Source: Promethearchaeota archaeon
Lineage (GTDB): Archaea; Asgardarchaeota; Lokiarchaeia; Sigyniarchaeales; SOKP01
Reading direction: 5' to 3'
Length of the DNA stretch: 19,420 bases
NCBI GenBank assembly: GCA_016839585.1
Contig: JAEOTZ010000009.1
Span: forward strand, 1-19,420
Shown: positions 12,529 to 19,182 of the stretch, in pieces
Layout: every line of letters begins with the position of its first letter
How positions within the stretch are numbered: position 1 is the stretch's first letter
The notes under the pieces: model-generated
Databases searched by the model: none
Told to the model about the DNA's origin: nothing
Seen by the model: the letters and a program-made list of their open reading frames with translations, nothing else
Position numbers and translations under genes: made by a program

Positions 12529-13056
12529 CTAATTTTTTAATTTTAAAGCTAATTTTAAGAAAAGTTTATTTATATCCAATTGATAAGCTATTAAAGATGT
12601 TAAACGTACCTCTCCAGTATCTTTTTGAATAATGATGTATCCTCGTTTTTCTAATTCCCTCAAATCATCCAGTATACCTTTTTTATTTCTCATTTTTTTA
12701 ATTTGTTCTACTTTTCCAACTCCAGAATTTTTGAGACAATTAACAAGAGTATAAAATAAACTCGCAGCTAACCTTGATTTCCCCTCAAAAGGATTTGCAG
12801 AAATAATATCTGAAGTGTCTATATCAAAGGAAATAAACCAGTGAGAATTTAAGGGATTATATCTGACTTGAAGTCCTAGCGGTTCTATATAATTCGATAA
12901 ATTGGTAATTAAATCTTGAAAATAAATTGATTTGTTTTTATTTTTCAAATTAAGGTTTTCAAGAATTTCTTTTTTAGTTGCCCCTATTTGAGATACAGTG
13001 GATTTTCTACTTAATAAATACATTAATAATGTAACTTCATTCAATTTTTTTATCAC
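12529..13056 (-). CDS. KITE-family tandem winged-helix subunit (Nse1/Nse3-MAGE/ScpB-like); true start may be TTG at 13044
   Basis: About 175 aa. First WH-like pattern (LMYLL...KKEIL...FQDLITNLSNYIEPLGLQV...HWFI) and second (LDDLRELEKRGYI...VRLT). Last gene after SMC and kleisin. AGGTGA SD lies upstream of TTG 13044. Confidence 0.7.
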   Translation of the reverse strand: MIKKLNEVTLLMYLLSRKSTVSQIGATKKEILENLNLKNKNKSIYFQDLITNLSNYIEPLGLQVRYNPLNSHWFISFDIDTSDIISANPFEGKSRLAASLFYTLVNCLKNSGVGKVEQIKKMRNKKGILDDLRELEKRGYIIIQKDTGEVRLTSLIAYQLDINKLFLKLALKLKN

Positions 13057-13060
13057 CTGA

Positions 13061-13711
13061 TTATAAATACAAAAAGTTTGTATCTTTTTGGTATTTGATT
13101 TTGCCTAATTGAAGAAGATGGAGTAAATATATAAAATTTTCATAAATTTTAATTTGATCTTGATCATCTTCAAATATTTCATCATAAGCACATGGGAGTT
13201 TCCTTTTAATGTTATTGAAGAATCTCATCATCTTTTCAGTAAATTTTTCTTTAGGTAATTCCAGATAAAATTCTTCATTAATTTTTTCTTTTTCTAAAGG
13301 TTCAAGAGAGAATACTGTCCCTTTTCTATTAAGCAGTTTATCCTTAGAGAATTCAAGAAAATTTAAGGAGAGATTATCAATATTAAATAGATTTCTCCAA
13401 CATCCTTCAAGTAATTTATAAATTTCTGTGTCTTTAGGATTTGATTCCAAATATTTTAAAATTTTATTTTCACTATCTAATGAACTAATCAAAATTTGCA
13501 ATTCTTGAAATTTTTGATTAAGTAATCTGCAAGCTTCAGAATATGTTTCAGAACCATCATAAATATTATCAATTGTAAGGAAATCTTTTATATCATTGAA
13601 GATTGGAACAAGTTCCAAATCTAATAAATTTATTTCACCTAAAAGAACTTTATTTTGTATATCTTCAATTTTTTTATTTAAAGCATTATATAGGTCTTTA
13701 TGTTCAACCAT
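13061..13711 (-). CDS. scpA: Kleisin (ScpA/Nse4-like)
   Basis: N-terminal GEINLLDLELVPIF resembles ScpA GEIDPWDIDI. C-terminal WH segment ENFIYLLHLLQLGKIKYQK. Start overlaps the SMC stop (TAATG). Confidence 0.75.
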   Translation of the reverse strand: MVEHKDLYNALNKKIEDIQNKVLLGEINLLDLELVPIFNDIKDFLTIDNIYDGSETYSEACRLLNQKFQELQILISSLDSENKILKYLESNPKDTEIYKLLEGCWRNLFNIDNLSLNFLEFSKDKLLNRKGTVFSLEPLEKEKINEEFYLELPKEKFTEKMMRFFNNIKRKLPCAYDEIFEDDQDQIKIYENFIYLLHLLQLGKIKYQKDTNFLYL

Positions 13712-16700
13712 TAGTTATTGTTCCTTTTTTTTTTAATAATTTTTGGTTTAAAAACTGATGATACTTCATTTTTGCCGACTCTAGCAATTCCTATTAACCT
13801 TTCAGCCAGATTAAATAAAGGAGTTGAAGATTTGGGTAGAAACATAAGCAACTGAATTGGATTTCCTTCTAAAGTAGACTTAATCAACTGGTAAGCAATT
13901 TCTGAATTTTTTTCATCTAAAAACATTCCTGCCTCATCAAACATACAAAGCGGAGATGGTTTAATTTCTTGAAGAGATAAAATTAAGCAAATTGATATCA
14001 TTGACATTTGACCTCCGCTTAATGCTGAAAATGATTTTAATTGTTCTTTAGAGGTTGCTGCTTTAATATTAACCCCTAAATTTTCAAAATCTCCTGTTAA
14101 TCCAAGAGAACAATAAGATTTAATTTGAGAAGATTCAAATTTTTGGTTGATTTTAGATTGTAGATCTTCAATTAATAATCCAAATTTGTTATAATATGTC
14201 TTTTCCATCTTGTTTTCAGTTTTAATTGCTGCTTTAATATCATTTTCTATATCTCTTTGGTTTTTAACGATTTCTTTAAGAGATGATATAATTTGATCTC
14301 TTTCAATCAGAATTGTGTCATCAATGTCTAAAAATTTAAGTAACTCTTTTTCTATTTTCAAGAGATCTTTTTCAATTTCCTCTATTGGTCGAATTTCTAT
14401 TTTTTCTTCTAAAATCAATGGAGCTATTTCAGAATTAATCCTTTTCAAATCTTTTTTCTTTAATTCAAATTCCTGTTTAAATGCATTTAATTTAATGTTT
14501 TCTTGTTCTAACTTGAGGGTATTTTGAATATTTCTTTTGTCTATTTCACTTTTCTCAAATTGATATTGTGATTTTAATCCATTTGATTTTAAAATTTTTT
14601 TTTCGATATCTTTAAGTTCTTCATCAATCTGCTCTAAATGATGATATATATTAAATGCTGATTTGTCTGCCTTTTGAAAATTTTCCTTTTTTGTTTTATA
14701 CTCCAGCCCTATAAGGCTAAGCGTATTATTATGTTTACTCATTTTTTCTTCGATTTCTTTTAGGAACTGTAAATTCTCATTTAATCTTACATCCCACTTT
14801 TTCTTTTCTTTATTTAGTAATGTCAATTCATTAGGAATTTCTTTAATTCTATCATTCCACTTAAAAAAATCTGGATCACTCTGAGTTTTTAATTCCTTAA
14901 TTTTTTTATCTAATTCTTGAACTTCAACTTGAATAGATACATTATTTTTCTCTAGATTATGCATTTTTTCGTATAACAGGTTCTTTTTTGTTGTAATTCT
15001 TTGTTTTTGATTAAAATTAAATAACAGATCATTGAATGCCTCTTTTTTTCTAAAAATATCTTTTTGAATCTCATCTAATTTAGATTGCTCTACCTTAAGC
15101 TCTGAAATATGGTCATTTGATAATTTAATTTCAGATTCTAAAATTTCTGATTGTTCTTTTTGTGTTCCAGCACTTAATAATCCTTTTAATCTCTTTAAAT
15201 AAGGTGTTTCATATACATATTTATAAGAAACAATTTGCTCTCCCTTTAAAGTAACGCATTTTCCCTTGAAATTATAATTGTTATAAAGTGCTATTCCTGA
15301 ACGATAATCTTTAACAACAAGGCAGTTTTTTACTTTTGAATAAATAACTTTTTTTATTTCAATATCATCATCAGTAATATCAATTAGTTCTGCTAAATAT
15401 CCAATAACCCCATTAGCAGAAATTTTAGGAAGAGGTGTGATATTGGTACTTTTAGCAATATAAATATTACAATATGCATTATATTTATTTTTTAAGCGTT
15501 TTAATAAGTTTAAGGTATCCCAATCATGTGCTACAAAGCTATATAATAATTTTTCCCCTAAAACCGATTCAATAGCATAGCTTAACTCATCTTTATATTT
15601 CAAATAATCAATAATAGGACCTTTTACATTTAAATCTCTTTTATATATCTCATCTTTGAGAACACTTATGTTTGAGGGAAGAATTACTCGACGTTCTCTA
15701 AGGGAGACTTGAAGAAGTTTTAATTTTCTCAACTTCTTTGATCTTTCAATCTCTAACTGCTTTACCTCTGATTCAATCTCATAAATTTTTAAAGATGTGT
15801 TTCTTAGTTCTTTATCAAGCTGTTGTAGAAGATTTTGTGTTGGATTTTCTAAAAACCACTTATTCTTTTCTAATTTGTGTTCTATATCCTTAAAGCTTTG
15901 AAATAACTGATTAATTTCATCTTTATTACTTTTATTTAGATTATCATTTTCGTGAAGCTGTTTTAATTTCTCCTTTTTCTCAGAGATTATTTGATTATAC
16001 TTATCTAAAAGAGTTTTATTTTGGTTTATTTTTCTTACTAATTGATTTTGCTCTTTTATTAAGCTATCAATGTTAAGTTCAATTTTCTTGGATTCTCTCT
16101 TAATTGTATTTAATTCAGTATCCAAACTTTCTTTCTGTTTCGTAAAATTATTTGCTATTTTTTCAATTTTCTCAATTTCTTCAGCCAAGGTATCTAATTC
16201 TTGTTTGACCATTAACTTCTCTTTTTGCCATTTTTGAATTTTAGTAATTAAATCTTGTTTTTGATAATTTAATTCACCAATTTTTTCTGAAAGTTTATTA
16301 ATATTTCGTTCTTCAACTGTAATCTTTCCTATTAATTCCTCTATTTCTTTATCATGCTTTTCTTTTTTATTTTTTATTCCATCAATAACTAATCCAAGGT
16401 TTTTAATCCTTTCTTTTAAGGAGTTTATTTCTTTTTGAAGTTTATCTCGATTTGCCCATAAAAGTTCGTCATTAATTTTTTTTTTAATTTGTAATAATTT
16501 ATTCTTTTGTTTTAAGCGTTCTAATTTGGGCTCTATTAATTCTAAGCTGATATTCAACGTATTTTTCTTGCTAATTAATGAATTAAGTTCTGTATTCAAA
16601 TTAAGTAAATTATTTTTTTGCTGTAAAATTTCATCCCTTAAACTTTTTAAACCAATTCCTTCTTCAAGAAAGGTGCACAACTCTGTTGGTTTTAAATTTT

Positions 16701-17196
16701 TTATGGCGTCGATTTTTCCTTGGCTCACAATAGCAAATTGGTTATCAGGATTAATATTCAAATCAGAAATTAATTTCTGAATTTCATGAGCTTGAACTTT
16801 TTTAAAATCATTGTCATTCTTTCTTTGAATTTTAAAAAATGGTGATTGCCCTCTGATTACAATTCTTCTTATTTTGATTACTTCTTCTTCTTTTTGAATA
16901 TGTATTTCAACCATAGCATGATTTTGGCCATTTCTTATAAAGTTTGACCATTTTTTATAACGCTCATCTCTCTCATTGCTTCCTAAAGCAAATTTTATCG
17001 CTTGAAATACAGATGTTTTACCACTCCAGTTAGGACCTACAATAATTACAAATTTAGCTTTTCCAAAATCTACTTCATCTTTTTGGAAAGATAAGAAATT
17101 CTCTAAAATGACCTTTCTAATGAATATTTCTTTTCTTTGAGATTTATTGGTATTTTCTTTAAGTTTTAATTGTGATTGAATAGTCATTTTTACCAT
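13711..17196 (-). CDS. smc: SMC-family ATPase, Smc5/6-like
   Basis: LENFLSF, Walker A GPNWSGKT, Q-loop SQGKI, two long coiled coils around a hinge (GPI...AIESVLG...CVTLKGE), signature LSGGQ, Walker B/D-loop MFDEAGMFLD and QLLMFLPK. Confidence 0.92.
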   Translation of the reverse strand: MVKMTIQSQLKLKENTNKSQRKEIFIRKVILENFLSFQKDEVDFGKAKFVIIVGPNWSGKTSVFQAIKFALGSNERDERYKKWSNFIRNGQNHAMVEIHIQKEEEVIKIRRIVIRGQSPFFKIQRKNDNDFKKVQAHEIQKLISDLNINPDNQFAIVSQGKIDAIKNLKPTELCTFLEEGIGLKSLRDEILQQKNNLLNLNTELNSLISKKNTLNISLELIEPKLERLKQKNKLLQIKKKINDELLWANRDKLQKEINSLKERIKNLGLVIDGIKNKKEKHDKEIEELIGKITVEERNINKLSEKIGELNYQKQDLITKIQKWQKEKLMVKQELDTLAEEIEKIEKIANNFTKQKESLDTELNTIKRESKKIELNIDSLIKEQNQLVRKINQNKTLLDKYNQIISEKKEKLKQLHENDNLNKSNKDEINQLFQSFKDIEHKLEKNKWFLENPTQNLLQQLDKELRNTSLKIYEIESEVKQLEIERSKKLRKLKLLQVSLRERRVILPSNISVLKDEIYKRDLNVKGPIIDYLKYKDELSYAIESVLGEKLLYSFVAHDWDTLNLLKRLKNKYNAYCNIYIAKSTNITPLPKISANGVIGYLAELIDITDDDIEIKKVIYSKVKNCLVVKDYRSGIALYNNYNFKGKCVTLKGEQIVSYKYVYETPYLKRLKGLLSAGTQKEQSEILESEIKLSNDHISELKVEQSKLDEIQKDIFRKKEAFNDLLFNFNQKQRITTKKNLLYEKMHNLEKNNVSIQVEVQELDKKIKELKTQSDPDFFKWNDRIKEIPNELTLLNKEKKKWDVRLNENLQFLKEIEEKMSKHNNTLSLIGLEYKTKKENFQKADKSAFNIYHHLEQIDEELKDIEKKILKSNGLKSQYQFEKSEIDKRNIQNTLKLEQENIKLNAFKQEFELKKKDLKRINSEIAPLILEEKIEIRPIEEIEKDLLKIEKELLKFLDIDDTILIERDQIISSLKEIVKNQRDIENDIKAAIKTENKMEKTYYNKFGLLIEDLQSKINQKFESSQIKSYCSLGLTGDFENLGVNIKAATSKEQLKSFSALSGGQMSMISICLILSLQEIKPSPLCMFDEAGMFLDEKNSEIAYQLIKSTLEGNPIQLLMFLPKSSTPLFNLAERLIGIARVGKNEVSSVFKPKIIKKKRNNN

Positions 17197-17209
17197 ATCT
17201 AATTAAATA

Positions 17210-18523
17210 CTATTTTCCAAAAGCTTGTTTAATCTGATCTATCCTTTTTTTTGCCTTTTCTAGATTGATTTGTGCTCTACTGGGGGAATCATTTAAAATA
17301 AATGCATACTTTCCCAATAATTTCCTATCATTATCTTCAAGAGGCTCATTTTTATTTAATTTATCAATTATTAATACAAGCTCATTATAATTTTTAGAAG
17401 CTGCATTTTCATATAATTGATTTAACATAAATTCGGAAATGCTTGATTGTCGGATATGATCAACAATCTCACTTACGTCCGCAATTGCAATTTGTTCATT
17501 TTTTTTCTGATTTGGCATTGTTGTAATATTAAGTATTTTGTCTTCTGTGGATTCAATATCTTCCGAAATCTCTGAAATTTTAAAATTGATTGATGGGATA
17601 TATTCGCCTGATTCAATTAAATCGATTAAAATGTCTGTTATTTCATTACTTGTTTCATTTAATTCTGAATTTAAATAGTGTTTAAAAATACCAACTCTTA
17701 ATAATTGATTTATGTCTAAAACCTCCCAGTTGGCTGTGTACTTGAGGATTTGATTAATATCAAAAACGATTTTAGGATTTCGTTCCAAAAAATGTCTAAG
17801 TATTGTCTCTCTTTCTATTTCATTTAAAAGAGGTATTTTAATAAAAAGGTCAAATATATTATATAATTGATTTGAATTCTCGGCTATCTCTTTTAGATCA
17901 TAATTAATCCAAACGATTAACAAATTTGAGTTAAGAAAGTTCAAATTAGTATCGCTATTTTCTTGGATATCTATAAACTTTTGTAATAAACTTACTCCTT
18001 GTAAATTTTTCATTAACTTCTTTTGTTGATTTATAATTATTAATTTCTTATTATCATTTTTTCCAAAATTGGTTTGGTCAGGTACATCTTTCTCTTGTTT
18101 ACTTATTTCTGATTCTTTTTCCGATTTTGATGCCATACCAAGACTTTTTATGATTGAATGAAAGCTGGTTAAAAATTTACTTTGAGATTTTATAATAGAA
18201 TTATAATCTAATTCAATAAGATCTAAATAATAATTGCTTGAAATTAATTTAATAAAATCAATTATATCTGTTCCTGGACTTATATTAATTAAAAGTGCCC
18301 CCTTTGGTTCAATATATTCCTGGATTACCATATCGTCATTATTAGTTAACATTACCTTTATATAATTAATAATATCATTATATTTATCCCGATAGAAGAT
18401 ATTTTCTTTATCAATGGTAACTTCTGATGGGGTTATTGTTCGAAAATACTTAGAAAATTCCGGAATCTTACTTAAATCAATCATAAAAATTTTTCTTATT
18501 TGTTTTAGCAAATTTATGAACAT
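17210..18523 (-). CDS. Degenerate (probably inactive) classic-clade AAA+ protein with C-terminal helical domain; start may be ATG 18484
   Basis: PKGALLINISPGTDII (cf. PKGVLLYGPPGTGKT), LIIINQ (cf. hhhhDE), LIVWIN (sensor 1) and FDLFIKIPLLNEIERETIL...DINQILKYTANWEVLDINQL (cf. FDRxIxIPLPDxxxRxxIL...DLxxLAxxTxGFSGADIxxL). Confidence 0.7.
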   Translation of the reverse strand: MFINLLKQIRKIFMIDLSKIPEFSKYFRTITPSEVTIDKENIFYRDKYNDIINYIKVMLTNNDDMVIQEYIEPKGALLINISPGTDIIDFIKLISSNYYLDLIELDYNSIIKSQSKFLTSFHSIIKSLGMASKSEKESEISKQEKDVPDQTNFGKNDNKKLIIINQQKKLMKNLQGVSLLQKFIDIQENSDTNLNFLNSNLLIVWINYDLKEIAENSNQLYNIFDLFIKIPLLNEIERETILRHFLERNPKIVFDINQILKYTANWEVLDINQLLRVGIFKHYLNSELNETSNEITDILIDLIESGEYIPSINFKISEISEDIESTEDKILNITTMPNQKKNEQIAIADVSEIVDHIRQSSISEFMLNQLYENAASKNYNELVLIIDKLNKNEPLEDNDRKLLGKYAFILNDSPSRAQINLEKAKKRIDQIKQAFGK

Positions 18524-18780: not shown

Positions 18781-19182
18781 TTAGTTAAAATTAAATTTCT
18801 CAATTAGATTAGTTAATTGCTTATTAAATTCATTCTCCATGAGGGAATAATAAGTAAATTTACCTTTTTTCCATCCCTTTATTAAATTAGCTTTCTCTAA
18901 TTCTCTTAAATGATGAGAAATTGAAGGCTGAGATTTATCTAAAATTGTTTCTAATTCGCATACACACCGGTCTTTTTTTTTCAGTGCTAAAACTATTATT
19001 AGACGTTCTCTGCTTCCTAGTGCTGTAAGAAAATCTAAAATTTTTGTAAATTCTTCATTAAATTGTAGTTTTTCACCAAACTCTTGTAATGATTTAAAAA
19101 TAATTTCAGAATTATCACATTTTTCACAACTGCATAACATTTTCTTTATCGTTTCTTTCCGTTTAGCTTTCAAAATACTCAC
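18781..19182 (-). CDS. arsR: ArsR/SmtB-family metalloregulator
   Basis: ALGxxxRLxI, alpha3 CVCEL, SQPSISHHLxxL and KxGKxxYYSL; extra N-terminal CSCEKC. Confidence 0.88.
   Translation of the reverse strand: MSILKAKRKETIKKMLCSCEKCDNSEIIFKSLQEFGEKLQFNEEFTKILDFLTALGSRERLIIVLALKKKDRCVCELETILDKSQPSISHHLRELEKANLIKGWKKGKFTYYSLMENEFNKQLTNLIEKFNFN

Follow-up and report, generated by a model that had tools for sequence, protein, structure and literature searches.

What does a protein built like an AAA ATPase, and devoid of the residues which such an enzyme would need, do at the head of an operon for an SMC complex? This question is raised by a gene, here called X, on a contig of a Promethearchaeota archaeon (JAEOTZ010000009.1, assembly GCA_016839585.1). 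The whole stretch of DNA that was analysed, hereafter the window, comprises 19,420 nucleotides. It is AT-rich (GC about 26-30%) and the labels of its close relatives are all Promethearchaeota or Lokiarchaeota.

The longest open reading frame of the locus occupies positions 17210-18523 on the minus strand and translates into 437 aa without internal stop. This agrees with an initial annotation of the DNA, made from the letters alone, and all the strings quoted there (ISPGTDII, LIIINQ, QLYNIFD and the tail SEFMLNQLYENAASKNY...AFGK) are present in the frame, but the start has to be moved. Database homologues are 408-427 aa long and all begin at the second methionine (MxDLxxIPEF), while the 13-codon extension (window 18485-18523) contains a stop in the closest relatives (L001, L002 and L004). 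The true start of X is therefore the ATG at 18484. With this start, placed by those of the homologues (MxDL..IPEF), the coding sequence of the AAA-fold pseudo-ATPase covers 17210..18484 (-) including the stop and encodes 424 aa; residue numbers refer to this form (P0006).

The AlphaFold2 model of X, built on an alignment of 73 sequences, is confident (mean pLDDT 80.9, pTM 0.63) except for residues 120-143 and 302-334. Foldseek matches it to the D2 module of p97 (3cf0_A, E 4.5e-9, probability 1.0, TM 0.58) and to PAN (3h4m_A, TM 0.61), and FtsH and Msp1 are also found. VIA-align superimposes residues 5-304 on SPATA5, Rpt subunits, Vps4, p97 and Drg1, with Z scores of 15.4-14.6 and rmsd values of 4.2-4.7 over 238-257 aligned residues (about 246). 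The earlier claim of a preserved AAA core and lid is thus borne out by the Foldseek E value for p97 D2 as well as by VIA-align scores of about 15. As far as the model goes, X is a classic-clade AAA module with its lid. It has the same α/β core, strand order and four-helix lid as p97/Cdc48 D2, PAN/Rpt, FtsH, Vps4, Msp1 and SPATA5/Drg1 (PF00004 and AAA_lid_3), and it lacks the N-domain or substrate-recognition domain of these proteins.

Sequence comparison alone does not reveal this relationship. X has no match in Pfam, NCBIfam or a phmmer search of the PDB, PF00004 being absent even at an E value of 1, and a profile search of the PDB with the orthologue profile A1 found no match either. Aligned with hhalign to the AAA modules of its own genome, X yields only a weak local match in the lid (E 0.034). 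Since direct searches are blind to the AAA module, the relation has to be established through the fold and through intermediate sequences. Unlike classic-clade proteins, the window protein stays under every profile threshold, though distant orthologues pass PF00004: against a cut-off of 21.2 bits, Thor-type orthologues (family f31) score 43, those of family f30 35.5, and P0181, a protein of Helarchaeales label named ‘AAA family ATPase’, 56.7. P0181 also matches FtsH, p97 and Rpt, and it combines an intact Walker A motif (GPLGTGKS) with the same tail as X. These intermediates lend transitive support to the AAA homology of X.

The N-terminal helix and the AAA α/β core with strands β1-β5 (residues 1-216; 17837..18484, (-)) are delimited by AlphaFold2, Foldseek, VIA-align and a MAFFT alignment with Cdc48 and PAN. 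Between α2 and the Walker B strand, the core is interrupted by a Loki-specific charged insert (residues 120-143; 18056..18127, (-)), predicted to be disordered (pLDDT <50), weakly conserved (consensus frequency 0.24) and missing in Thor-type orthologues. The lid (residues 217-300; 17585..17836, (-)), defined by the local hhalign match, the model and the alignment, keeps the P..R..I and T.GW..D motifs (P..R..I and T.G...D in the classic clade). It also carries an invariant Loki-specific loop, LNSELNETSNEIT, and has the lowest dN/dS of all regions of X (0.095). An acidic disordered linker follows (residues 301-336; 17477..17584, (-); pLDDT <50 for residues 302-334, consensus frequency 0.30). The two disordered inserts, together with the novel helical bundle at the C-terminus, set X apart from classic-clade AAA proteins.

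The register of the catalytic motifs was set by a MAFFT alignment with the Cdc48 D2, PAN and Vps4-like modules of the same genome and agrees with the predicted strands. It places Walker A, Walker B and the arginine fingers where the initial annotation had put them. In place of GPPGxGKT, the P-loop reads I68-S-P-G71-T72-D73-I74-I75 (18260..18283, (-)): lysine and threonine are both replaced by isoleucine, and the last glycine by an invariant aspartate. G71 and D73 are found in 80/80 orthologues and T72 in 77/80, the lysine in 0/80. The remnant of Walker B, L148-I-I-I-N152-Q153 (18026..18043, (-)), has NQ instead of DE; position 152 is asparagine in 60/80 and aspartate in 16/80 sequences, position 153 glutamine in 77/80. 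At the arginine-finger position, Q-L-Y-N-I-F211-D212 (17849..17869, (-)), LYNIFD aligns with R-PGRFD, both arginines are missing and the loop is three residues shorter than in Cdc48/PAN, with the F-D of RFD retained. In pore loop 1, IIKSQSKF aligns with LSKWVGES and no K[WYF]xG motif is present. X thus keeps the motif register of the classic clade and differs from it by the absence of the Walker A Lys/Thr, the Walker B Asp-Glu, the arginine fingers and the pore-loop aromatic residue.

The claim that every catalytic motif is degenerate holds for Walker A, Walker B and the arginine fingers. It is slightly overstated, since the sensor-1 asparagine is kept: N194, at the end of β4 (W192-I-N194; 17903..17905, (-)), aligns with the asparagine of ATN and is conserved in 77/80 sequences, W192 in 80/80. 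Judged from its sequence, X lacks the residues required for ATP binding or hydrolysis, and we infer from this the absence of nucleotide binding. The former catalytic positions are fixed across orthologues, so the pocket is a conserved, remodelled structure and is not drifting. The invariance of G71, T72, D73, N152/Q153 and N194 shows that the old nucleotide pocket is still under constraint, so that binding of a ligand, or a weak interaction with a nucleotide, cannot be ruled out. X could, for instance, be a switch in which the remodelled pocket (PGTD, NQ, N194) binds a nucleotide or another small molecule without hydrolysis and thereby gates the action of X. The pocket positions are indeed conserved as strongly as the hydrophobic core, and relatives at the same operon position combine an intact Walker A with the lack of the catalytic glutamate, which is the signature of non-hydrolysing binders. 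In the Loki proteins, however, the lysine and the threonine which would hold the β/γ phosphates and the Mg ion are both isoleucine, and by general P-loop chemistry an aspartate in the phosphate-binding loop should repel phosphates. We regard such a switch as unlikely for X.

Loss of catalytic residues could also signal a gene in decay, or an open reading frame without biological meaning. The missing Pfam and NCBIfam matches and the AT-rich genome (about 26% GC) would fit this, but the reading is refuted by conservation: the intact orthologues number in the hundreds and reach down to about 40% identity, the AlphaFold2 fold is confident and dN/dS is about 0.2. We consider it practically ruled out. 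At least 562 homologues of X were found, and a single-sequence scan of 1.84 billion representatives returned 95 relatives, the distant ones sharing lid and tail. The frame is open in 79/79 full-length orthologues. Against six orthologues, the dN/dS of X is 0.19-0.23, compared with 0.12-0.16 for the neighbouring SMC gene. Conservation is highest in lid and tail (mean consensus frequency 0.79) and lowest in the two disordered inserts (0.24 and 0.30). The initial annotation had inferred that X is no pseudogene but a maintained pseudo-ATPase, and the homologue count, the open frames and the dN/dS value support it. Close orthologues with intact Walker motifs would have refuted that inference; every Loki-order orthologue is equally degenerate. 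The orthologue alignment and dN/dS analysis which it had proposed were carried out and gave shared degeneracy and purifying selection.

One observation among close strains concerns the boundary between X and the SMC gene. When window 13711-18484 is compared with L001:8001-12774, the closest genome, the SMC gene has a dS of 0.057 and the adjoining X gene a dS of 0.33. The SMC gene is near-identical but X is far more diverged, which suggests a recombination breakpoint or a mosaic between the two.

The C-terminal part of X (residues 337-424; 17213..17476, (-)) is a helical bundle according to a separate AlphaFold2 model: the last 90 residues, modelled alone, form a compact bundle with a pLDDT of 91. 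An acidic linker leading into a helical tail, as initially described, is thus recovered in the predictions, residues 302-334 being disordered and 337-422 helical (pLDDT >90). The hallmark of the tail is QLYxxAAxxxYxxL...PFILxDxPxxAxxxLxKAKKRxDxIK. The separate search with this segment, also proposed at the outset, produced no match in Pfam and no significant match among PDB folds; the best Foldseek hit (E 2.4) and the best hit of a wide VIA search (Z 5.2) are helical-bundle noise. In several Asgard families, the tail profile occurs in one copy per genome, among them the family of X itself (f1), with 58/60 high-quality genomes, and f31, with 22/25. It has no match in families f5, f6 and f7, where a different, tail-less AAA occupies the same position. 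An interaction role of the tail, as conjectured in the initial annotation, is plausible, no interaction data being at hand. A reading of X as Orc/Cdc6-like (AAA+ and winged helix) was considered and dropped: the tail scores against Orc2/Cdc6 (Z about 4) are helical-bundle noise, and the core resembles the classic rather than the initiator clade.

The gene neighbourhood offers more guidance on function. The stop of X is followed after 13 nt by the start of a divergent second SMC of 1161 aa (13711..17196, (-)), recognised by Pfam SMC_N and SMC_hinge, whose TIGR02168/9 scores lie far under the cut-off. A kleisin-like protein of 216 aa (13061..13711, (-)), with an ATG overlapping the SMC stop, is assigned by the orthologue profile A5 and its conserved position. 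In the PDB, this profile matches the C-terminal WHD of Pyrococcus furiosus ScpA (4i99_C, E 0.0015) and ScpA 5xns_C (E 0.012). The last gene encodes a small protein of 175 aa in the kite position (12529..13056, (-)), identified by conserved position and not ScpB by Pfam. It has no sequence match in Pfam or the PDB, the search of the PDB with the kite profile included. The order X-SMC-kleisin-kite on one strand is found in 80/80 related genome loci as far as the contigs reach, with gaps of tens of bases within the Loki-order loci.

This is not the only SMC system of the organism. In the same genome, which is 99% complete, contig C63 encodes both a canonical SMC and a canonical ScpB, and the window operon is therefore a second SMC system. 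Pfam SMC_N gives 128 bits for the canonical SMC vs 62 for the window SMC. In phmmer searches of the PDB, the latter obtains weak scores with Smc1-4, bacterial Smc and Smc5/6 alike, so that its class is ambiguous; its placement in the SMC5/6-related class rests on the literature. The canonical SMC (G000:C63:48513-52877; L131:6436-10884) is unusually long, at about 1480 aa, and was missed by a first Pfam SMC_hinge search. The canonical ScpB lies on the same contig but about 15 kb off, not adjoining; in G128 and G129, ScpB precedes the canonical SMC.

Two further observations concern the surroundings and the spread of the locus. A gene for an ArsR/SmtB-family HTH protein (window 18781-19182, (-)) is located upstream of X on the same strand, and most of the 80 related loci have such a gene at a distance of about 0.2-4 kb upstream of X. 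It may be conserved as a regulator, or owe its place merely to synteny. A complete Loki-type ArsR-X-SMC-kleisin-kite locus is also present in L074 (DATKTW010000069.1), labelled ‘Candidatus Nanopelagicaceae bacterium’, and ESM Atlas clusters near X are likewise labelled Actinomycetota. The L074 locus is probably mis-binned Asgard DNA rather than the result of a transfer.

Strict operon linkage to the SMC complex is the strongest functional clue for X, one on which the initial annotation of this gene had not drawn. Gene order demonstrates co-regulation, not binding, and other contexts for such an operon have to be weighed. It might be a mobile defence system of the SMC type, akin to Lamassu or Wadjet, with X as the sensor or effector partner. 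In PADLOC, there are weak matches of the SMC head to the LmuB, JetC and mad3 models and of the relatives which bear a Walker A to IetA and TRIP13. These matches amount to generic ABC/SMC-head and AAA similarity, however, and X, kleisin and kite match no PADLOC model. Defence islands are patchy; this operon is instead single-copy, syntenic and near-universal in its family (58/60 high-quality genomes), and it is under steady purifying selection. A defence function appears very improbable to us.

The fold itself could also point to a different partner. Instead of being an SMC subunit, X might serve another, active AAA machine (e.g. Cdc48, PAN or Vps4) as a pseudo-subunit or an adaptor, either within or on top of a hetero-oligomeric ring or by recruiting that unfoldase, for instance to pull the SMC complex off DNA. 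The nearest folds are those of p97/Cdc48 D2, Rpt, Vps4 and Msp1 modules, and potential partners exist, as the genome encodes four Cdc48-like proteins, one PAN and one Vps4-like protein. Inactive partners of active rings are also established elsewhere: LAP1/LULL1 are inactive AAA partners of the active Torsin ring. X, unlike LAP1/LULL1, has no arginine finger to donate, and it is through this residue that LAP1/LULL1 act. Moreover, no active AAA gene is linked to X in any locus examined; the sole invariant neighbours are SMC, kleisin and kite. We consider the adaptor role unlikely and favour an association of X with the SMC complex.

The linkage extends beyond the Loki order. An AAA-type gene lies directly upstream of the second SMC, with kleisin and a kite other than ScpB in the same operon, in ten further Asgard families (f3, f4, f31, f30, f20, f10, f6, f7, f21 and f28). 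In f3, f4, f31 (Thor), f30, f20 and f10 it encodes a tail-bearing X; in f6, f7, f21 and f28 it encodes a tail-less AAA of 339-560 aa with an intact Walker A. The tail-less proteins of f6 and f7 have, in addition, a coiled coil at the N-terminus and an HTH-like C-terminus. The AAA stop overlaps the SMC start in L135 and L136. Neither the tail nor the operon kite was found in the genomes G016 and G067 that were searched.

Two of the tail-less proteins, P0335 (L132:5034-6653) and P0336 (L136:4912-6591), come from two other families of the Lokiarchaeia class. In these 540-560-aa AAAs upstream of the second SMC, the N-terminal coiled coil spans about 190 aa, Walker A is intact and Walker B ends in DN or EN; the place of the tail is taken by an HTH-like segment at the C-terminus. 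Such an architecture would fit a DNA-binding loader. The second SMC varies as well: it is about 825 aa long in f21 (L140:7100-9577) and about 930-970 aa in f20 and f10, and its arm length differs widely among Asgard lineages.

The operon-linked AAAs share a pattern of loss. Walker B is never DE in any of them, the variants being DN, EN, ED, DP, EQ, DQ, AQ and NQ, and all lack the arginine fingers and the pore-loop aromatic residue. An intact Walker A is found only in distant positional counterparts of X, which still lack the Walker B glutamate and the arginine fingers. Thor-type orthologues, of about 350 aa, have the P-loop G(P/T)(P/S/E)GTDF; their ESM Atlas cluster is Thorarchaeota, with 98% PF00004. 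Because the Walker B glutamate and the arginine fingers are missing in all operon AAAs, the loss of hydrolysis appears old and shared, and the loss of the P-loop later, in tail-bearing branches. From these alignments, the decay of the family looks ancient and stepwise. The first state would have been an operon-linked AAA able to bind ATP, already without catalytic glutamate and arginine fingers; it survives in several Asgard families and in the tail-bearing Helarchaeales-labelled protein P0181. Loss of the P-loop would have followed in those tail-bearing branches that comprise Thor and Loki.

Retention of an AAA fold after catalysis has been lost is not without precedent. NSF D2, Pex1/Pex6 D1, dynein AAA5/6, the clamp-loader subunits δ and δ′, and LAP1/LULL1 are inactive AAA/AAA+ scaffolds or regulators, and X resembles them in that the fold remains under selection. 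These known inactive modules belong to active AAA machines, as domains or as partners, whereas X is free-standing and linked to an SMC complex, i.e. an ABC-type ATPase and not an AAA motor. With respect to its proposed role, X is comparable to Nse5/Nse6 of Smc5/6, to ScpB and to MukE, as a non-SMC, non-kleisin partner of an SMC-kleisin-kite core. The resemblance ends there: none of these proteins is AAA-derived or related to X by sequence or fold. ScpB and MukE are winged-helix kites. Nse5/6 are α-solenoids, described as eukaryotic additions (bioRxiv 10.1101/2024.01.07.573240), and X differs from them by its AAA α/β fold and small helical bundle.

On the basis of the modelled fold, the motif loss, the purifying selection and the strict operon linkage demonstrated across the Asgard phylum, we find it fairly probable that X, AAA-derived but non-catalytic, serves the second SMC complex of Asgard archaea as an accessory subunit, a loader or a regulator. 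Its physical binding to this complex and the kind of regulation it exerts are inferred. X would descend from a classic-clade AAA ATPase and be catalytically dead, its α/β core and lid serving as a rigid scaffold. It would have lost the P-loop Lys/Thr, the Walker B Asp/Glu (now Asn/Gln), both arginine fingers and the substrate-threading pore loop, and acquired a C-terminal helical bundle that is specific to the family and carried by a flexible acidic linker. Presumably co-transcribed with SMC, kleisin and kite as the leading gene of the second SMC operon, it would act on the SMC complex non-enzymatically, as a docking, loading or regulatory factor, and its conserved tail and lid surfaces may grip the SMC complex and/or a partner.

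According to published work, TACK and Asgard archaea possess two SMC operons, one condensin/cohesin-related and one SMC5/6-related, each comprising SMC, kleisin and kite, i.e. three subunits, with no mention of an AAA gene. Searching the literature for archaeal SMC operons with an AAA gene, we retrieved nothing relevant. Pseudo-AAA modules are already known; for an AAA-derived family dedicated to an SMC operon, we found no report in the searchable literature. A more far-reaching proposal counts the AAA-derived protein among the genuine subunits of the SMC5/6-related complex of Asgard archaea, as an ancestral fourth one which evolved from an ATP-binding, non-hydrolysing switch to a nucleotide-independent form in Loki and Thor. 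This remains tentative, and we are inclined, if only slightly, to doubt it.

The operon AAAs form a clean natural inactivation series, from loss of the glutamate with Walker A kept to loss of the P-loop, which is useful for the study of pseudo-enzyme retention. X itself is a concrete candidate for how the second SMC complex is loaded or regulated and, if this is true, represents a previously unrecognised class of SMC cofactor. Eukaryotic condensin, cohesin and Smc5/6 are traced back to Asgard SMC complexes, and a fourth, phylum-wide protein heading the second SMC operon would alter the parts list of the ancestral machine. Should the proposal of an ancestral subunit hold, the archaeal forerunner of eukaryotic Smc5/6 would already have had a dedicated accessory factor, later replaced in eukaryotes.
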